NCBI RefSeq assembly: GCF_050185995.1
Contig: NZ_JBFWYW010000005.1
Length of the DNA: 64,000 nucleotides
Strand: one strand, 5' to 3'
Origin: Pseudolabrys sp.
GTDB taxonomy: Bacteria > Pseudomonadota > Alphaproteobacteria > Rhizobiales > Xanthobacteraceae
Shown here: piece by piece, positions 4,016 to 36,105 of the stretch
Position numbering within the stretch: position 1 is the first letter of the stretch
Layout: each line of letters opens with the position of its first letter
The notes under the pieces: model-generated
Told to the model about the DNA's origin: nothing
Seen by the model: the letters and a program-made list of their open reading frames with translations, nothing else
Databases searched by the model: none
Program-made: the position numbers and the translations under genes

Positions 4016-5284
4016 ATGACCGAGCCAAGCGGCACCCGGCCGTTTTCCCCTTTTGAATGGATGCTGTCGCTGCGCTACCTGCGGGCGCGGCGCAAGGAAG
4101 GCTTTATCTCGGTGATTGCCGGGTTTTCCTTCCTTGGCATCGTGCTGGGGGTTGCGACCCTCATCATCGTCATGGCGGTCATGAACGGCTTCCGCAAGGA
4201 GCTGCTCGACAAGATTCTCGGCCTCAACGGCCACCTGCTGATCCAGCCGCTCGAGAAGCCGCTGTCGGACTGGGAGGAGGTCGCCGCTCGCATCAACAAG
4301 GTGAAGGGCATCCGGCTTGCCTCGCCGATTGTCGAGGGACAGGCGCTTGCATCCTCGCCATTCAATGCCGGCGGCGTGCTCGTGCGCGGCATCCGGCTGA
4401 TGGATCTGCAAAAGCTTCCCTCGATTTCCAAGAACATCAAGCAGGGCACGCTTGAGGGCTTTGACGAGGGGCAGGGCGTCGCCATCGGGCGGCGGCTCGC
4501 CGATCAACTGTCGCTGCGCGCAGGCGATAACATCTCGCTGGTCGCGCCACGCGGCGCGGTGACGCCGATGGGCACGACGCCGCGCATCAAGGTCTACAAG
4601 GTCGCGGCGGTGTTCGAGATCGGCATGTCGGAATATGACGGCGCCATCGTCTTCATGCCGCTGAAGGAAGCGCAGGCCTACTTCAATCGCGCCGGAGATG
4701 TCACCGCCATCGAGGTCTATACCGACGATCCCGATCATATCGACCACTACCGCAAGCTCGTTACCGAGGCGGCGCAACGCCCGATCTTCATGATCGACTG
4801 GCGGCAGCGCAACGCGACGTTCTTCAACGCGCTGCAGGTCGAGCGCAACGTGATGTTTCTGATCCTGACGCTGATCGTGCTGGTCGCCGCGCTCAACATC
4901 GTCTCGGGTCTCATCATGCTGGTGAAGGACAAGGGGCAGGACATCGCGATTCTGCGGACCATGGGCGCGACGCAAGGGTCGATCATGCGTGTGTTCCTGA
5001 TCACCGGCGCTTCGATCGGCGTGGTCGGCACCATCGTCGGTTTCCTGCTCGGCGTGGTGGTGTGCCTGAACATCGAGTCGATCCGGCAGTTCCTGTCCTG
5101 GCTGACCAACACCGAACTGTTCTCGCCGGAGCTTTATTTCCTGTCCAAGCTGCCAGCCGACATGGATACCGGCGAAACCGCCGCCGTCGTGGTCATGGCG
5201 CTGACGCTGTCGCTGCTCGCGACGCTCTATCCGTCGTACCGCGCGGCCCGGCTCGATCCGGTCGAGGCGCTGCGTTATGAGTGA
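4016..5284 (+). CDS. lolE: Lipoprotein-releasing ABC transporter permease (LolC/E type)
   Basis: [25 protein letters not shown] and [19 protein letters not shown] motifs. Confidence 0.93.
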
Positions 5285-6008
5285 GGTCGCCGACCACACG
5301 GCGACGCAAGCCTCCGCGCCGTCCGAGGATGTGCCGCTGATCTTCCTGCATCAGGTCGAGCGGCATTACCGGCAGGGCGAAGACACGCTGCACATTCTCA
5401 AGGGCGCCGAACTTGCGGTATGGCCGGGTGAATCGGTCGCGCTGGTCGCGCCGTCGGGCGCCGGCAAGTCGACGCTCTTGCACATCGCGGGCCTGCTGGA
5501 GCATCCCGACCGCGGCGACGTCTATATCGACAGCCGCTCGACCGCGCTCTTGTCGGACGCCGAACGCACCGCGATCCGCCGCAGCGATATCGGTTTCGTC
5601 TATCAGTCGCACCGGCTGTTGCCGGAGTTCTCCGCGCTGGAGAATGTCATGCTGCCGCAGATGATCCGCGGCCTGTCTCGGAACGAGGCCAAGGCGAGGG
5701 CGTCCGAACTGCTCGGCTATCTGGGCTTGGCCGAGCGCGTCACCCATCGGCCGGCGGAACTGTCCGGTGGCGAGCAGCAGCGGGTGGCGATTGCCCGGGC
5801 GGTCGCCAACGCGCCGCGCGTGCTGCTTGCCGACGAGCCGACCGGAAACCTCGATCCGGGAACCGCCGACCGGGTGTTCAACGCGCTGACCCAGTTGGTG
5901 CGGGCCTCTGGCCTCGCCACCATCATCGCCACTCACAACATGGACCTGGCGGCCCGGATGGACCGGCGCGTGACCTTGCGCAACGGCATCATCGAGGAAA
6001 TGCCCTAA
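5277..6008 (+). CDS. lolD: Lipoprotein-releasing ABC transporter ATPase
   Basis: Walker [10 protein letters not shown], signature [25 protein letters not shown]; overlaps the lolE stop. Confidence 0.93.
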
Positions 6009-6050
6009 CTCATTGAATTTGAAGGGGATAGCGCCTCCCACAGACTCCGG

Positions 6051-6092
6051 TTGACATGAGAACAAACAACGAACTATGTTCTCTCTCCGTTC
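6051..6092 (+). promoter_or_regulatory. sigma70 promoter overlapped by two LexA (SOS) boxes
   Basis: TTGACA 6051-6056, 18 nt, TATGTT 6075-6080. GAAC-N7-GAAC 6060-6074 and GTTC-N7-GTTC 6078-6092 both match the alphaproteobacterial LexA consensus. Confidence 0.88.
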
Positions 6093-6132
6093 TAGTCGAG
6101 TCCATACAGTCCGTATCGATGGGGAGGTCGTT

Positions 6133-6231
6133 ATGTTCCGTGCACTGGTTCAGGAAGCCGCCGCGCTTGCCTCGCTGACGCTGTTTCTGGGCATGATTGC
6201 GATCTGGTCGCAGGTTCTGACGACCATCTAG
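6133..6231 (+). CDS. Unannotated 32-aa hydrophobic protein MFRALVQEAAALASLTLFLGMIAIWSQVLTTI, candidate SidA-like SOS cell-division inhibitor
   Basis: SD GGGGAGG 6121-6127, ATG 6133, TAG 6229-6231. One TM-length hydrophobic stretch, a LexA-boxed promoter and a position just upstream of dnaE. Confidence 0.8.
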   Translation: MFRALVQEAAALASLTLFLGMIAIWSQVLTTI

Positions 6232-6412
6232 GTTGCGCCCGGCGGGCTTGCCGGATGGCCGGGCCCGCCACGCTGGGGATATCCGGCAAAGTCCGGCTTA
6301 GGCTGGCCGCCGCGGTGGATAGGCGGTGGACAGTGCGGCCCCGAGGCCGCACGGTCTCAGGCAGCGGGAATCGCTCCCCGTCTGATCTTGCCGGACATCC
6401 CTGAGGTTTTTC

Positions 6413-9400
6413 GTGGCCAAATCTGAGGTCAGCAGCCCCGATTTCGTGCATCTGCACGTCCATTCGTCCTATTCGCTGCTCGAGGGCGCGCTGACCATCG
6501 GCCGGCTCGCCGAGCTTGCCAAGGCGGACCGGCAGCCGGCGCTGGCGCTGACCGACACCGACAACATGTTCGGTGTGCTGGAATTCTCCGAAAAGATGGC
6601 GGGCTCCGGCATCCAGCCGATCGTCGGCTGCGCGCTGGCGGTCGACTTCGGCGACTTCGACAAGAACGGCCACAACGGTGGACGCAACGGCGCGCCGACC
6701 CATGCGCCGGACCACGGCCGCATCGTCCTGCTGGCGGCGCGCGAGGCCGGTTACCGCAGCCTGATGCGGCTCAACTCGCGCGCCTTCCTCGAAACGCCGT
6801 CCAACGAGCGGCCGCACATCAAGCTCGTCTGGCTCGACGGCGAAAGCGACGGGCTGATTGCGCTGACCGGAGGCTTAAGCGGCCCGCTCAACGCCGCCAT
6901 CGCCGCCGGCCAGCCGCAGCTTGCCGCGCAACGCCTCGCGGCGTTGCAGGCGCTGTTCGGCGATCGGCTTTATGTCGAGTTGCAGCGCCACAACATGGAG
7001 GCCGAGCGCGCCGCGGAAGCTGCGTTGATCGAACTCGCCTACGCCAACGGCATTCCGCTCGTCGCCACCAACGAGCCGTTCTTCGCCAAGCAGAGCGATT
7101 ACGAGGCGCATGACGCGCTGATCTGCATCGCGCAGGGGCGCATGGTCGCAGAAACCGACCGGCGTCAGCTCACGCCGGAATACCGTTTCAAGACCCGTGC
7201 GGAGATGGTCGCGCTGTTCGCGGATCTGCCGGAAGCGATCGAGTCGACGGTCGAGATCGCGCGGCGCTGCGCGTTCCGTCCGAAGACGCACAAGCCGATC
7301 CTGCCGCGATTTGCGACCGGCGAGGGGGATGCCGCCGACGAGGCGTCCGAGTTGCGCAAGCGCGCCGAGGACGGCCTTGCAAAGCGCATCGCGGCGCACG
7401 GGCTTGCGCCGGGGGAGACCGAGCAGAGTTACCGCGAGCGGCTCGACTTCGAGATCGCCGTCATCGAGCGGATGAAATATCCCGGCTACTTCCTGATCGT
7501 CGCCGACTTCATCCAGTGGGCGAAAGCGCAAGGCATTCCGGTCGGGCCGGGCCGTGGCTCGGGCGCCGGCTCGCTCGTCGCCTATGCGCTCACCATCACC
7601 GATCTCGATCCAATCCGCTTCGGTCTGCTGTTCGAGCGCTTCCTCAATCCCGAGCGCGTCTCGATGCCGGACTTCGACGTCGACTTCTGCCAGGACCGCC
7701 GCGACGAGGTGATCCGCTACGTGCAGGAGCGTTACGGGCGCGATCAGGTCGCGCAGATCATTACCTTCGGCACGCTGCAGGCGCGTGGCGTGCTGCGCGA
7801 CGTCGGCCGCGTGCTGCAGATGCCCTACGGGCAGGTCGACAAGCTCTGCAAGCTGGTGCCGCAGAACCCGGCAGCGCCGATCTCGCTCAAGCAGGCGATC
7901 GAGAGCGAGCCGAAGCTGCAGGCCGAGCGCGACGCCGAGCCGGTGGTGAAGCGCGCCTTCGACATCGCGACCAAGCTCGAGGGCTTGAACCGCCACGCCT
8001 CGACGCATGCCGCCGGCATCGTCATCGCCGACCGGCCACTGGCCGAGCTTGTGCCGCTCTATCGCGATCCGAAGTCGGACATGCCGGTCACCCAGTTCAA
8101 CATGAAGTGGGTCGAGCAGGCGGGACTGGTGAAGTTCGACTTCCTCGGCCTCAAGACACTCACTGTCCTGCAAACGGCGGTGAAACTCGTCAAGCGTCGC
8201 GGCATCGACATCGATCTCGCCGCCATCCCGCTCGATGACGCGAAGACCTACGAGTTGCTGGCCAAGGCCGAAGCGGTCGGCGTGTTCCAGCTGGAAAGCG
8301 CGGGTATGCGCCGCGCGTTGCTCGACATGCGGCCGGACCGTTTCGAGGACATCATCGCGCTCGTCGCGCTCTACCGGCCGGGTCCGATGGCGAACATTCC
8401 GACCTATTGCGCACGCAAGCATAATCTCGAAAAGCCGGATTACATCCACCCGAAACTGGAAACGGTGCTGCGCGAGACCTTCGGCGTCATCGTCTATCAG
8501 GAACAGGTGATGCAGGCCGCGCAAATCCTTGCCGGCTATTCGCTCGGACAGGCGGACCTGCTTCGCCGCGCGATGGGCAAGAAGATCCGCTCCGAGATGC
8601 AGGCGCAGCGCAAGGATTTCGTCGAGGGTTGCGTTGCGCGCAGCATCGACCGCTCGCAGGCCGACGCGATTTTCGATCTGCTCGAGCGCTTCGCCGAATA
8701 CGGCTTCAACAAGAGCCACGCCGCAGCCTACGCGCTGGTCGCCTATCAGACCGCCTATATGAAGGCGAATTATCCGGTCGAGTTCATCGCGGCGTCGATG
8801 ACGCTCGACATGGGCAACACCGACAAACTGTCCGAATTCCGTGCAGAAGCGGAACGGCTCGGCATTACGGTCGCCCCGCCCTCGGTCAACCGCTCCGACG
8901 TGACGTTCGAGGTCGAGGGCAACACGATCATCTATGCGCTCGCGGCGCTCAAGGGCGTCGGCACGCAGGCCGTCGAGGCGGTCGTCGCCGCGCGGCAACA
9001 GGGACCGTTCAAGGATCTCGCCGACTTTGTGTCGCGCATCAATCCGCGCGCGGTGAACAAGCGCGTGCTGGAAAGTCTCGCGGCGGCGGGCGCGTTCGAT
9101 ACGCTCGAGGACAACCGCGCGCGTGTCTTCGGCGCCGTCGACATGCTGCTGTCGCGGGCGCAGCGCGCGCACGAGACGGCGGCGGTCGGACAGAGCGAAT
9201 TGTTCGGCGGCAGCGGAGGGGCCAGCGAAGGCTTGCCGCTCCCCTCGGTCGAGCCGTGGCTGCCGGCGGAGCGTCTGCGCCGTGAATACGAAGCGATCGG
9301 CTTCTTCCTCTCCGGCCACCCGCTCGATGACTATGTCGAAGTGCTTAAGCGCATGCGCGTGCAATCCTGGGCAGAGTTCTCCAAGGCCGTGAAGGCCGGC

Positions 9401-9904
9401 GCGACCGCGGGCCGCGTCGCCGCCACGGTCGTCTCGCGCGTGGAGCGGCGCACGCGGATGGGCACCAAGATGGGCATCATCGGCCTGTCGGACCCGACCG
9501 GCCATTTCGAGGCAGTGGTGTTTTCCGAAGGCCTCGCCGAATACCGCGAGCGGCTGGAGCCGGGTTCGGCGGTGCTGCTGTTCCTGTCGGCGGAAGTGCA
9601 GGGCGACGAGGTGCGCGCCCGCATCCAGTCGGTCGAGCCGCTCGATGCGGCGGCCGCCAACATCCAGAAGAGCCTGCGGGTCTTCCTGAAGGACGAGAAA
9701 CCGCTCGACGCGGTGGCCAAGCGCCTCGAGCCGGCGCGCAACGGCCGCGCGGCGGCCAACGGCGACGGCGAAGTCACCATGATCCTGATGATCGACCAGA
9801 TGACCGAGGTCGAGGTGCGCCTGCCAGGCCGCTTCAAGGTCTCGCCGCAGATCGCCGGCGCGATCAAGGCGGTGCCGGGCGTCGTTCAGGTCGAGGCGGT
9901 TTGA
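6413..9904 (+). CDS. dnaE: DNA polymerase III alpha subunit
   Basis: PHP domain FVHLHVHSSYSLLEG, GPGRGSGAGS, MPDFDVDF, KFDFLGL, YGFNKSH; GTG start; no intein-sized insertion. Confidence 0.97.
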   Translation: MAKSEVSSPDFVHLHVHSSYSLLEGALTIGRLAELAKADRQPALALTDTDNMFGVLEFSEKMAGSGIQPIVGCALAVDFGDFDKNGHNGGRNGAPTHAPDHGRIVLLAAREAGYRSLMRLNSRAFLETPSNERPHIKLVWLDGESDGLIALTGGLSGPLNAAIAAGQPQLAAQRLAALQALFGDRLYVELQRHNMEAERAAEAALIELAYANGIPLVATNEPFFAKQSDYEAHDALICIAQGRMVAETDRRQLTPEYRFKTRAEMVALFADLPEAIESTVEIARRCAFRPKTHKPILPRFATGEGDAADEASELRKRAEDGLAKRIAAHGLAPGETEQSYRERLDFEIAVIERMKYPGYFLIVADFIQWAKAQGIPVGPGRGSGAGSLVAYALTITDLDPIRFGLLFERFLNPERVSMPDFDVDFCQDRRDEVIRYVQERYGRDQVAQIITFGTLQARGVLRDVGRVLQMPYGQVDKLCKLVPQNPAAPISLKQAIESEPKLQAERDAEPVVKRAFDIATKLEGLNRHASTHAAGIVIADRPLAELVPLYRDPKSDMPVTQFNMKWVEQAGLVKFDFLGLKTLTVLQTAVKLVKRRGIDIDLAAIPLDDAKTYELLAKAEAVGVFQLESAGMRRALLDMRPDRFEDIIALVALYRPGPMANIPTYCARKHNLEKPDYIHPKLETVLRETFGVIVYQEQVMQAAQILAGYSLGQADLLRRAMGKKIRSEMQAQRKDFVEGCVARSIDRSQADAIFDLLERFAEYGFNKSHAAAYALVAYQTAYMKANYPVEFIAASMTLDMGNTDKLSEFRAEAERLGITVAPPSVNRSDVTFEVEGNTIIYALAALKGVGTQAVEAVVAARQQGPFKDLADFVSRINPRAVNKRVLESLAAAGAFDTLEDNRARVFGAVDMLLSRAQRAHETAAVGQSELFGGSGGASEGLPLPSVEPWLPAERLRREYEAIGFFLSGHPLDDYVEVLKRMRVQSWAEFSKAVKAGATAGRVAATVVSRVERRTRMGTKMGIIGLSDPTGHFEAVVFSEGLAEYRERLEPGSAVLLFLSAEVQGDEVRARIQSVEPLDAAAANIQKSLRVFLKDEKPLDAVAKRLEPARNGRAAANGDGEVTMILMIDQMTEVEVRLPGRFKVSPQIAGAIKAVPGVVQVEAV

Positions 9905-24635: not shown

Positions 24636-25541
24636 ATGCCCGCCTCCGCGCCCATCGCCGCTTCGGCCGCCCGGACGCAGGCGCTTGGGACGCCGGAGAT
24701 CGGCCCGCTCGGCATCATCTGCGGCGGCGGCGTTGCCCCGGCGGCGGTCGCCGATGTCGTGGTCAAGAGCGGCCGGCCGGTGATGCTGTTTCCGTTCCGG
24801 GGCTTCGCCAGCGCGGCGGACGTCGAACGGTTTCCTCACGAGTGGATCGCGCTCGGCCAGTTCGGCCGTTTCAAGCGGCTCGCCCGGCGCCACGGTTGCC
24901 GCGATTTCATCTGGATCGGCGGCCTGACGCGGCCACGGATCGGTCAGCTCCGCTTCGATCTCGGCACGATGCTGATGCTGCCGGACATTATTCGGGCGTT
25001 TCGCGGCGGCGACAATCATATGCTGACGACGCTCGGCGCGTTTTTCGAGCGCCACGGCTTTCGTATTCTCGCCGTTGCGGACGTCGCGCCGGAGATGTTG
25101 GCGCCGGAAGGTGTGATGACCGCGCGCGCACCGACGCCCGAAGACCGGGCGGACATCGAGAAAGGGCTCGATCTGATTGCAACCATCAGCCGGTTCGACG
25201 TCGGCCAGGGCGCGATTGTCGCGCGCAATCATGTGCTCGCCATCGAGGGCATTGAAGGCACCGATGGCATGCTTCGCCACGCTGCCGCGCTCCGGGATGC
25301 CGGCCGCATTCGCAGCGGCGAGCGCACCGGCGTGCTGGTGAAGATGCCGAAACGAGGGCAGGACCTGCGTTTCGATCTGCCGGCCGTCGGACCGGACACC
25401 GTCGCGGGCGTCGCCGCCGCCGGATTCGGCGGCATTGCTGTCGCTGCCGGACGAACCATTGTGGTCGATATCGCCCGCGTCGTCGCCGATGCGGATCGCG
25501 CCGGTCTGTTCGTGATCGGGGTCAAGGCGCGGGAGGCTTGA
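24636..25541 (+). CDS. lpxI: UDP-2,3-diacylglucosamine hydrolase LpxI (DUF1009)
   Basis: GGDNHML, FDVGQG, LAIEGIEGTD, VKMPKRGQDLRFDLPAVGP; located between lpxA and lpxB. Confidence 0.9.
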   Translation: MPASAPIAASAARTQALGTPEIGPLGIICGGGVAPAAVADVVVKSGRPVMLFPFRGFASAADVERFPHEWIALGQFGRFKRLARRHGCRDFIWIGGLTRPRIGQLRFDLGTMLMLPDIIRAFRGGDNHMLTTLGAFFERHGFRILAVADVAPEMLAPEGVMTARAPTPEDRADIEKGLDLIATISRFDVGQGAIVARNHVLAIEGIEGTDGMLRHAAALRDAGRIRSGERTGVLVKMPKRGQDLRFDLPAVGPDTVAGVAAAGFGGIAVAAGRTIVVDIARVVADADRAGLFVIGVKAREA

Positions 25542-26698
25542 GCGTGCCGCGTCCGCTGAGGGTCTTTCTCGTCGCGGCCGAGGAATCCGGCGACCGGCTC
25601 GGCGCGCCGCTGATGCGGGCGCTGCGCAGCATGCGGCCGGAGGTCGAATTTACCGGCGTCGGCGGCGCGCAAATGACGGCGCAGGGCATTACGCCGCCGT
25701 TCCCGATCGACGAATTGTCGATCATGGGCTTCACGTCGATCCCCGCAAAACTCCCGAACATTCTGCGCCGCATCCGGCAGACCGCGGCAGCGGTCGCCGC
25801 CGCAAAGCCGGACGTGCTGGTCATCATCGACAGTCCCGATTTCACCCACCGTGTCGCGCGCCGCGTCCGCACGGCGATGCCGGACCTGCCGATTGTCGAT
25901 TACGTCTCGCCGAGCGTGTGGGCCTGGCGGCCCGGTCGCGCCAAAGCGATGCGCGCTTATGTTGACCATGTGCTGGCGCTTCTGCCATTCGAGCCGGAGG
26001 CGCATCGGCGGCTTGGCGGACCGGCCTGCACTTATGTCGGCCATCCGATGATCGAGCGGATCGCTGAACTGCGGCCGAACACGGACGAAGCCCGCCGACG
26101 CGAGGCCTCACCGCCGGTGCTGCTGGTGATGCCCGGCAGCCGTCGCGGCGAGTTGAAATACATGCTGCCGATCTTCGAGCAGACGGTCGCGCAAGTCGCG
26201 GCGACAGTGGGGCCTCTTGAGGTTGTGATCGCGGCGGTGCCGCGTCTTGCCGCCGGCATCGAAAGCGTCGTTGCATCGTGGCGTGTGCGTCCGCGCCTCG
26301 CGGTGACGCAGGAGGATCGGGACGCCGCATTTCGCGCCGCCCGCGCAGCGCTGGTCAAATCCGGGACCGGCACGCTGGAACTGGCGCTCGCCGGGGTGCC
26401 GATGGTGGCGTCCTACAAAGGCTCGGCGATCGAGGCGTTTATCGCGCGGCGCCTGGTCAAGGTTCCGACCGTGATCCTCGCCAATCTGGTGCTGGGCGAG
26501 AAGGTCGTGCCGGAATTCCTGCAGGAGGATGCCGAGCCGGGACGAATGGCGGCGGCGCTTGCGCCTCTGCTTGGCGACACTGCGGAACGCACCCGGCAGG
26601 TCGAAGCTTTCAACCGTCTCGACGCGATCATGGAAATTGGAACGGCGCGGCCCAGTGACCGCGCCGCTGAAATCGTTCTCAAAGCCGCAGAGGGCTGA
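25538..26698 (+). CDS. lpxB: Lipid-A-disaccharide synthase
   Basis: AAEESGD, IIDSPDF, YVSPSVWAWR, LLPFE, MPGSRRGE and KSGTGTLE; TTG start overlaps the lpxI stop. Confidence 0.95.
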   Translation: MSVPRPLRVFLVAAEESGDRLGAPLMRALRSMRPEVEFTGVGGAQMTAQGITPPFPIDELSIMGFTSIPAKLPNILRRIRQTAAAVAAAKPDVLVIIDSPDFTHRVARRVRTAMPDLPIVDYVSPSVWAWRPGRAKAMRAYVDHVLALLPFEPEAHRRLGGPACTYVGHPMIERIAELRPNTDEARRREASPPVLLVMPGSRRGELKYMLPIFEQTVAQVAATVGPLEVVIAAVPRLAAGIESVVASWRVRPRLAVTQEDRDAAFRAARAALVKSGTGTLELALAGVPMVASYKGSAIEAFIARRLVKVPTVILANLVLGEKVVPEFLQEDAEPGRMAAALAPLLGDTAERTRQVEAFNRLDAIMEIGTARPSDRAAEIVLKAAEG

Positions 26699-34045: not shown

Positions 34046-34759
34046 TCAGTAGCGCCGGAACAGGCCGACAAGCCGGCCCTGAATGCGGACCCGGTTCGGC
34101 GGCAGGATACGCACCTCATAGGCGCTGTTGGCCGGCTCGAGTGCGATGGAGGCGCCGCGGCGGCGGAACCGCTTGAGGGTGGCTTCCTCGTCGTCGATCA
34201 GCGCCACCACGATGTCGCCGGTGTCGGCGGCGTCGCTGCGGCGGATCAGGGCGATATCGCCGTCGAGAATGCCGGCCTCGATCATCGAGTCGCCGCGCAC
34301 TTCGAGGGCGAAATGCTCGCCGGTCGAGAGGAGGTCCGGCGGCACGTTGATGGTGTGGCTGCGGGTCTGGATCGCCTCGATCGGCGTGCCGGCGGCGATG
34401 CGGCCCATGACGGGCACGGCAATCGGGTGCCCGGCGCTGCCGCCGTCATCGTCGGCGGCCACCGCACGGACGCGGCCGAGGTCGCCCTCGATGACACTCG
34501 GCGTGAAGCCGCGGCTGCGCCCGGAGCCAAGCCCATGGGCGACCGAATCGGGCAGCTTGATCACTTCGATGGCGCGGGCGCGGTTGGGCAGGCGGCGGAT
34601 GAAGCCGCGCTCCTCCAGCGCCGTAATCAGCCGGTGGATGCCGGATTTCGACCGCAGATCGAGCGCGTCCTTCATCTCGTCGAACGAGGGGGGGACGCCG
34701 GTTTCCGTCAGCCTCTCGTGCAGGAAACGCAGAAGCTCGAACTGTTTGCGGGTCAGCAT
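34046..34759 (-). CDS. lexA: SOS repressor LexA
   Basis: [23 protein letters not shown] cleavage site in RIAAG, catalytic Ser in GDSM and Lys in ATLKR; start moved to ATG 34759. Confidence 0.96.
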
Positions 34760-34813
34760 GGATTTCCTCGGATTTCCCCAGTTCCGGCCCCGCGCATCCC
34801 ACGCATCGGCCAG

Positions 34814-34859
34814 AAACAAATCATGAACGGACACTATCCGTTCCAGTTGTGTTCCGCAA
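34814..34859 (-). promoter_or_regulatory. lexA promoter with autoregulatory LexA boxes
   Basis: Perfect GTTC-N7-GTTC 34840-34854 and near-match AAAC-N7-GAAC 34814-34828. Minus strand TTGCGG (34859-34854), 17 nt, TAGTGT (34836-34831). Confidence 0.85.
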
Positions 34860-34893: not shown

Positions 34894-36105
34894 CTAAAGG
34901 CCGAACTTAAGGATGACGCAGGGCGAGCCGGCCTTCGCCGCCGGCGCACGCACCTCGCGAATCAACAGGCAGTCCGCCACGGCCAGTGGCGCCATCAGCG
35001 AGCTGTCCTGGTTCGCCAGCGGCGTCGCGACCGGGACGCCATCCGGGCCTTCGCTCAGCGTCGCGCGCAGGTAGTCGGCGCGTTCGTCGTTCTCCGGCAT
35101 GTCGCGGCCGAGCACCGCCGCTTGCGGGGCATGGATGACGTCGCGGCGGCCGGCGAGGCGGCGCATCAGCGGCACCAGGAACAGGAACGAGCACACGTAG
35201 GACGACACCGGATTGCCCGGCACGCCGAGCACCTGCATGGGGCCGAGCTTGCCGTGCATCATCGGGCGGCCGGGGCGCAGTGCGACGCGCCAGAACGACA
35301 GGTCCATGCCCTCGGCGGTCAGCGCCTTCTGGACGAGGTCGTGCTCGCCGACCGATGCGCCGCCGGAGGTGAGCAGGATATCGGCGCCGGCGTCGCGGGC
35401 GCGACGGATCGCGGCGCCGATGGCGTCGAGGCTGTCCCGCGCGATGCCGAGTTCGATTGCCTCGCAGCCTTCGGAGCGCACCAGCGCGGCGAGCGCAAAG
35501 CCATTCGAATAGACGATCTCGCCGGGCTTCGGCGCCTGGCCGGGCGGCACCAGTTCGTCGCCAGTGCCGAGCACGGCGACCTTCGGCCGGCGCACCACCT
35601 TCACCGCCGGATAGTTCATCGCGGCGGCGAGCATCAGGTCGCGGTCGGTGAGGCGGCGGCCCTTGGCGAGCAGGACGTCACCTTCGCGGAAGTCGATCGC
35701 GGCAGGGCGGACATGGCGGCCGGTCTTGATGGCGAGCTTGATCAGAACCTTGTCGCCGTCGCGGCCGGTGTCTTCCTGAATGACGACGGTATTGCTGCCC
35801 GCCGGCATCACGCCGCCGGTGAAGATGCGCGCGGCTTGGCCCGGACCGACGTGGCCTGCGAACGGGTGGCCGGCGGCGACTTCGCCAATCACGTCAAGCG
35901 TGACCGGCGCCTGCGCGATATCCGCGCCGCGCACGGCATAGCCGTCCATCGCGGAAAGCGCCGCCGGCGGCTGGGTTCGTTTGGCGACGAGATCCTGCGC
36001 CAGTACGCAGCCGAGCGCATCCGACAGCGGAACGTCATGCGCGGGCAGCGGCGCGGCGTCCGCGAGAACCTGTTTCAGCGCCTCTGCGACCGGCATCAGC
36101 GCCAT
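34894..36105 (-). CDS. moeA: Molybdopterin molybdotransferase MoeA
   Basis: [28 protein letters not shown] and GVPGNPVS. Confidence 0.95.

Follow-up and report, generated by a model that had tools for sequence, protein, structure and literature searches.

To understand what a 32-codon open reading frame (ORF) does when it lies under 2 LexA boxes and directly in front of dnaE, we analyzed a window of 64,000 nucleotides from Pseudolabrys sp. (the whole stretch of DNA under study, on contig NZ_JBFWYW010000005.1) together with the corresponding loci of related bacteria. A first-pass annotation of this DNA had proposed that the ORF is an SOS-controlled gene, probably missed by annotation, for a membrane protein orthologous or analogous to the Caulobacter division inhibitor SidA. 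The unit begins with a -35 hexamer, TTGACA, read directly from the bases (6051–6056, plus strand), which is separated by 18 nt from a -10 hexamer, TATGTT (6075–6080, plus strand). LexA box 1 (6060–6074) reads GAACAAACAACGAAC on the plus strand, that is, GTTC-N7-GTTC on the minus strand, and is located between the -35 and the -10. LexA box 2, GTTCTCTCTCCGTTC (6078–6092, plus strand), shares 3 nt with the -10 hexamer and lies over this hexamer and the expected transcription start. The 5'-UTR (6093–6132, plus strand) has an unconserved reading frame and contains the Shine-Dalgarno sequence GGGGAGG (6121–6127). It is followed by the 32-codon coding sequence (CDS; 6133–6231, plus strand), with an ATG at 6133 and a TAG at 6229–6231, whose product, MFRALVQEAAALASLTLFLGMIAIWSQVLTTI, is SidA-like and predicted to be a single-pass membrane protein. 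A GC-rich spacer with hairpins and no U-tract terminator (6232–6412, plus strand) separates this CDS from dnaE, which encodes the DNA polymerase III alpha subunit (6413–9904, plus strand, GTG start at 6413; NF004226, 1519 bits). The flanking genes were identified with NCBIfam as lolCE, lolD, and dnaE; the 5' neighbor, lolD (5277–6008, plus strand), is mentioned for context and falls outside the unit. The promoter, the 2 perfect boxes in opposite orientation, and the Shine-Dalgarno sequence with its 32-amino acid ORF between lolD and dnaE were all found where the first-pass annotation had placed them. In a promoter scan of both strands of 5800–6700, TTGACA-N18-TATGTT was the sole σ70-like site, against 0.1 expected. 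No intrinsic terminator was found after the ORF, either in the scan or in the comparison of spacers, and the U-tail is absent, as had been claimed.

With each species represented by one genome, the ORF was detected in at least 376 species genomes, and the window was aligned with the 80 best relatives of these 376, giving 81 sequences. The 80 best genomes belong to Pseudolabrys, Pseudorhodoplanes, Undibacter, Bradyrhizobium, and other Xanthobacteraceae or Hyphomicrobiales MAGs, in agreement with the Hyphomicrobiales lineage first proposed, and one of them, a Pseudolabrys MAG (L001), encodes an identical protein. The ORF is exactly 99 nt long, starts with ATG, and carries no indels in all 81 loci. 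Conservation of the frame in relatives had been set beforehand as a refuting test, and the same frame is used in 81 of 81. Variation shows a 3-nt periodicity, with entropies of 0.53, 0.14, and 1.02 at codon positions 1, 2, and 3, respectively (81 sequences), and the dN/dS check that had been suggested gave a value of approximately 0.14 (Nei-Gojobori, 81 sequences). A Shine-Dalgarno-like motif precedes the ORF in 76 of the 81 loci. Altogether, the 32-codon ORF is a real gene under purifying selection.

At the protein level, when the 51-amino acid frame around the ORF was used as the query, at least 100 clusters of homologous proteins, 32 to 42 amino acids long, were obtained; these have in common the near-invariant core QEAAALASL..F.GMIAIW.QV. 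A search with a joint profile of SidA and the window family produced 2050 matches; at 90% identity, the family's proteins in public data form over 2000 clusters. We looked for intermediate lineages among the best 120 of these 2050 matches and among the best 150 of 512 HMM matches obtained from 1.84 billion representatives, and in both sets only close family members were present. Pfam, NCBIfam, PHROGs, PADLOC, PDB sequences, and Rfam contained no meaningful match for the 32-amino acid protein or the region. The clusters carry the name 'hypothetical protein' only; JGI, ENA, and NCBI gene calls do exist and often use this name, so that the gene was not missed by annotation everywhere.

The start codon is a recurrent difficulty in these calls. 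In the window (6076–6132) and in many homologue calls (for example, P0019 and P0251), translation is started at an ATG within the promoter (TATGTTC), giving proteins that begin with 'MFSLRS...'. We rejected the resulting 51-amino acid ORF from ATG 6076, since it begins with LexA box and leader sequence translated in a frame that is not conserved. The 3 reading frames are used interchangeably 5' of the ATG at 6133 and its counterparts, and 'TMFSLRS', 'ELCSLSVL', and 'MNYVLSPF' are translations of one DNA motif; therefore, this stretch is conserved as DNA and not as protein. The same artifact appears as 'MEQNKK...' in Caulobacter loci (L081–L092), where it corresponds to the old 40-amino acid CC1927-type call. 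Translation of the LexA box by gene callers is a systematic annotation artifact in both families.

The alphaproteobacterial LexA site that the first-pass annotation had named, GTTC-N7-GTTC, is matched by both promoter boxes and occurs 4 times in the 64-kb window, against 2 expected. Two of these matches are the boxes of the ORF promoter, 3 nt apart. The window also encodes lexA on the minus strand (34049–34834; Pfam LexA_DNA_bind and Peptidase_S24), with a promoter box at 34840–34854 (unit 34049–34854). The presence of this GTTC-N7-GTTC box just upstream of lexA fits classical autoregulation, and the lexA product is presumed to be the repressor that acts on the ORF unit. A moeA-like gene (34897–36105) adjoins lexA. 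The fourth match (26066–26080) is located inside lpxB (25538–26695, plus strand) and is probably a chance occurrence. As far as can be read from the DNA, the window holds both components that characterize an alphaproteobacterial LexA regulon, the GTTC-N7-GTTC operator and an encoded LexA.

Both boxes are strongly conserved. All 16 specified bases are intact in 78 of the 81 loci, and the remaining 3 miss one base each; the box 1 tetramers are invariant in 79 loci and box 2 is kept in 80. Because 78 loci keep these 16 bases while the N7 spacers of both boxes vary across the 81, the double-box arrangement is not due to chance. The box-aligned consensus is ctTGaCt-N-GAAC-N7-GAAC-TAT-GTTC-N7-GTTC: in the majority of the 81 loci, TTGAC is kept 4 to 5 nt 5' of box 1, and the TAT of the -10 is kept in at least 75. 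With one box over the -35/-10 spacer and the other over the -10 and the start, the predicted promoter is arranged in the classical way for repression by occlusion, and LexA would be expected to bind it in vivo. Between box 2 and the ATG there are 40 nt in the window versus 12 to 18 nt in most relatives, which makes the window leader approximately 27 nt longer, and its length in L001, the closest genome, is intermediate.

The system with which this locus invites comparison is that of Caulobacter. In line with the first-pass annotation, SidA is an inner-membrane protein of 29 amino acids, SOS-induced and controlled by LexA, that inhibits division by acting on FtsW/FtsI/FtsN, and its gene (ccna_02004, CC1927) adjoins dnaE (CC1926, ccna_02003). 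PsidA is the only promoter with 2 LexA boxes in the SOS table of PMC12700426; the boxes, GTTCACAAGATGTTC and TTTCTTGTTTTGTTC, are 49 and 15 bp, respectively, away from the CDS, and the transcription unit of 3557 bp comprises sidA and dnaE (PMC12700426). Caulobacter dnaE is induced, with a log2FC of 1.18 after MMC and of 1.45 in a lexA sidA double deletion (PMC12700426). We recovered sidA loci by scanning metagenome contigs for both published PsidA boxes, which yielded no loci in the first box orientation and 12 in the second. On the coding strand, the recovered loci read GAACATCTTGTGAAC-N19-GAACAAAACAAGAAA-N15-ATG, followed by a 29-codon ORF and, after roughly 20 to 50 nt, by dnaE, and the distances of 15 and 49 bp between the boxes and the CDS equal the published values. 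The recovered 29-mers bear the NCBI name 'cell division inhibitor SidA' (Caulobacter, Phenylobacterium), and the recovered Caulobacter SidA scores 72.1 bits against NF033228 (div_inhib_SidA).

The genomic neighborhoods were also compared. Among the relatives of the window, all 80 loci have dnaE 3' of the ORF and co-oriented with it. The upstream neighbor is lolD in most loci, and lolD was not found within 3 kb upstream in L056, L071, and L076. We therefore rejected lolD linkage as a defining feature, since lolD is absent from that stretch in some loci, for example in Bradyrhizobium; of the lolD-dnaE interval originally proposed, the link to dnaE stands and that to lolD does not. In L087 (4580–5613) and other Caulobacter loci, the gene 5' of sidA is divergent and nucleoside hydrolase-like, not lolD. 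Hence, a lolD-dnaE neighborhood is specific to part of the Hyphomicrobiales.

The window gene resembles sidA in several respects. Both genes lie directly 5' of dnaE and are co-oriented with it, both have 2 LexA boxes in the promoter and a GGAGG Shine-Dalgarno sequence within a short leader, and both encode a tiny protein (32 versus 29 amino acids) with a single hydrophobic helix and a similar GRAVY (1.40 for the window protein versus 1.43 for SidA). The 2 proteins share M1, R/K3, E, A-L, S, F, M, and Q in one register, and MAFFT applied to the pooled set superposes M1, E8, A11, L12, S14, F18, and M21. Aligned with hhalign, the family and SidA match over 24 ungapped columns with P = 0.0029 for narrow and 6e-4 for broader alignments, at a probability of 11% to 28%. 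In HMM cross-comparisons, scores were 2 to 11 bits for SidA members against the family HMM and 4 to 12 bits for family members against the SidA HMM; shuffles that preserve composition attain such scores with p = 0.001 to 0.02, and values near 0.01 are no proof of homology for short hydrophobic peptides. There are also differences from SidA. Identity is approximately 29% over the 24 columns, the W occupies another helix position, and the C-terminal half GMIAIW.QV is specific to the window family. The Caulobacter boxes have the same orientation and a 19-nt gap, whereas those of the window family are in opposite orientation and 3 nt apart, and the distance to dnaE is roughly 20 to 50 nt in Caulobacter versus 54 to 600 nt here. 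Furthermore, neither the window protein nor a member of the family from Bradyrhizobium matched the SidA equivalog model NF033228, which has a curated cut-off of 35 bits, even at E ≤ 10. Finally, inhibition of division was demonstrated in Caulobacter alone, whereas the present family is known from sequence.

The nearest sequence relative that we found outside the family is sORF25 of Sinorhizobium meliloti (MADFVRDLAAFASMSLFIVSISVIALGL), a 28-amino acid product encoded in the 5'-UTR of dnaE1/SMc01375 and detected by ribosome profiling (Hadjeras et al. 2023, PMC10117765). It was suggested there as a possible uORF, with no function assigned and no connection to SidA made (PMC10117765). Like the window gene, sORF25 is a translated small hydrophobic ORF directly 5' of dnaE, and the similarity extends over V[QR][ED]xAA[LF]AS[LM][ST]LF[LI]; unlike the window protein, it is without the GMIAIW-Q C-terminal half. 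It scores 13.5 bits with the window-family HMM, a value equaled by 4 of 50,000 shuffles (p = 1e-4), and 4.4 bits with the SidA HMM (p = 0.03). The pairwise registers agree, position n+1 of the family corresponding to position n of SidA and to position n of sORF25. From these comparisons, the window family, SidA, and sORF25 quite probably share a common ancestry, and the 32-amino acid protein is probably homologous, though diverged, to SidA as well as to sORF25. Orthology to SidA is suggested by synteny, promoter logic, and a weak, register-consistent similarity. The proposal of a SidA orthologue or analogue is thus sustained by layout, promoter, and this similarity, and not by the curated SidA HMM. 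By analogy with SidA, the protein may function as a division inhibitor.

The failure of the curated model and the low hhalign probability would also be expected from a convergent analogue, or from a protein with another SOS-linked membrane role (for example, at the replisome or the envelope), that is unrelated to SidA and resembles it through transmembrane composition and shared position; the orientation and spacing of the boxes, unlike those of Caulobacter, point in the same direction. This is nevertheless unlikely, because 3 pairwise comparisons give a single register, each with a composition-controlled shuffle p ≤ 0.03, and because the window family, SidA, and sORF25 are all located immediately 5' of dnaE.

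The hydropathy of the 32-amino acid protein peaks at 1.85 in a 19-residue Kyte-Doolittle window, which is transmembrane-grade and bears out the one TM-length stretch described earlier, and we infer that the protein inserts into the membrane. The variable positions 13, 16, 19, 26, and 29 to 31 share one helical face, with a peak of conservation periodicity near 110 degrees, and the polar residues E8, S14, and Q27, within or close to the helix, are conserved. E. coli TisB is a 29-amino acid membrane peptide under LexA. A size of approximately 30 amino acids, hydrophobicity, LexA control, and conserved E8, S14, and Q27 are compatible with an SOS-induced membrane toxin of the TisB/DinQ type, which would depolarize the inner membrane (dormancy/persistence) and would not be a specific divisome inhibitor. 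We consider this quite unlikely. The leader is about 18 to 46 nt and not a long structured 5'-UTR, the opposite strand of 5800–6700 is without a promoter-like antisense site, and no Rfam match was obtained. Moreover, the arrangement with an essential gene is operon-like, and both sequence and context resemble those of SidA, which acts through FtsW/I/N.

The relationship of the ORF to dnaE was analyzed at the level of the spacer and of transcription. Among relatives, the spacer is 54 to 600 nt long, and unconserved in sequence; GC hairpins and repeat elements abound in it, and T-runs are almost never present. The window spacer folds somewhat more stably than its shuffles (z = -2.8) and contains no terminator; there is no Rfam match in the region. 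Evidence at the RNA level comes from assembled contigs of a relative, in runs whose RNA type was guessed. One such contig of 1366 nt starts 11 nt 5' of the ATG, crosses the ORF and the spacer, and enters dnaE, and contigs of the RNA-classed runs have zero depth over the promoter, with the Bradyrhizobium glycinis locus as reference; these contigs lend weak support to co-transcription. The window itself occurs in landfill and freshwater metagenomes, and no RNA runs containing it were found. The ORF and dnaE are probably co-transcribed; since no terminator intervenes, the transcript may to some extent run on into dnaE. In a comparative-genomics paper, dnaE is listed among the LexA-regulated genes of the alpha-Proteobacteria, which fits the presence of boxes 5' of comparable small ORFs elsewhere. 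A reason why it recurrently appears as 'LexA-regulated' in such comparisons may be that the boxes serve the small gene in the first place.

The constant position 5' of dnaE could equally be that of a cis-acting uORF or leader peptide, whose translation, and not its product, would tune dnaE, as was proposed as a possibility for the S. meliloti counterpart in the dnaE1 5'-UTR (PMC10117765). Such a role is very unlikely here: purifying selection on the amino acids is strong and conservation is face-specific in the manner of a transmembrane helix, the distance to dnaE ranges from 54 to 600 nt over an unconserved spacer with no attenuator-like terminator, and the Caulobacter relative was demonstrated to act in trans. 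An untranslated chance frame in a LexA-regulated dnaE leader, which has the small size of the ORF and nothing else in its favor, is extremely improbable given the invariant length, start, and frame in 81 loci, the dN/dS of 0.14, the Shine-Dalgarno sequence in 76 of 81, and the ribosome occupancy of the S. meliloti relative (PMC10117765).

Therefore, we return to the SidA-like reading, in which the sequence features are best explained by an SOS-controlled two-gene module consisting of a sidA-like gene and dnaE. In undamaged cells, LexA would occupy both head-to-head boxes, 3 bp apart, and the promoter would be tightly shut because the boxes fill the -35/-10 spacer and cover the -10 and the start site. 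Upon DNA damage, RecA-stimulated self-cleavage of LexA would open the promoter, and the short leader with its strong Shine-Dalgarno sequence would allow translation of the 32-residue single-pass inner-membrane protein. By homology or analogy with SidA, this protein would then bind the late divisome (FtsW/FtsI/FtsN) through its conserved helix surface, this target being suggested by the Caulobacter example, and septal wall synthesis would be held off until repair is complete. Read-through into dnaE may at the same time modestly raise the supply of the replicative polymerase during the SOS response. Such an inhibitor would be comparable to YneA, SosA, ChiZ, DivS, and DidA, which are small membrane proteins induced by DNA damage that block late division and not FtsZ. 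These proteins differ from the window protein in that their sequences are unrelated, they are larger, and most of them have extracytoplasmic domains; in addition, DidA is SOS-independent. E. coli SulA is likewise an SOS-induced division inhibitor under LexA; however, it is a cytoplasmic 169-amino acid FtsZ binder, unlike in sequence, size, and target.

SidA is treated as a protein of Caulobacter and Phenylobacterium in the literature and in the NCBI curated model, and we found no description of the window family in the literature on SidA homologues in rhizobia or in Bradyrhizobium TSS and sORF papers. While the kind of system is known, our analysis adds a large divergent branch and an indication that a sidA-dnaE module is widespread in the Alphaproteobacteria. 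That the SOS module of a small membrane-protein gene and dnaE is ancestral to a large part of this class (Caulobacterales, Rhizobiaceae, and Xanthobacteraceae/Bradyrhizobium), and not peculiar to Caulobacter, is a proposition to which we give an even chance. If it is true, a SidA-type checkpoint directed at FtsW/FtsI would be the general alphaproteobacterial counterpart of SulA, hard-wired to the gene of the replicative polymerase, and division arrest and Pol III supply would be induced from one LexA-gated promoter. Homology to SidA, if true, would extend the Caulobacter checkpoint to Bradyrhizobium-type soil bacteria. Because the ORF is present in at least 376 species genomes and is linked to sORF25, the question of a checkpoint can be addressed in the tractable Bradyrhizobium and Sinorhizobium. 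The divergent sequences also constitute a natural set for mapping the FtsW/FtsI contact surface. For annotation, these results favor a SidA-family model of wider scope, together with the correction of ORFs that are extended into the LexA box.

Further features were observed around the unit in individual relatives. In the Bradyrhizobium glycinis locus (L056, 2862–2890), a strong U-tailed terminator of an unrelated upstream gene is located directly before the TTGACT promoter. This leaves dnaE without an obvious source of read-through at that locus, and its basal expression would thus depend either on leakage through the LexA-gated promoter or on an unrecognised promoter within the spacer. A GC-rich palindrome, …GTCATGCCCGGCC…GCCGGGCATCCACGTC…, is present in the spacers of 8 loci (L009, L015, L016, L025, L039, L046, L053, and L054), where it sits about 30 to 70 nt past the ORF stop, and a second type of spacer element, GTCATTCCGGG…CCCGGAATCC, occurs in other loci. 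These recurring elements resemble REP-like repeats that were inserted into the interval from the ORF to dnaE.
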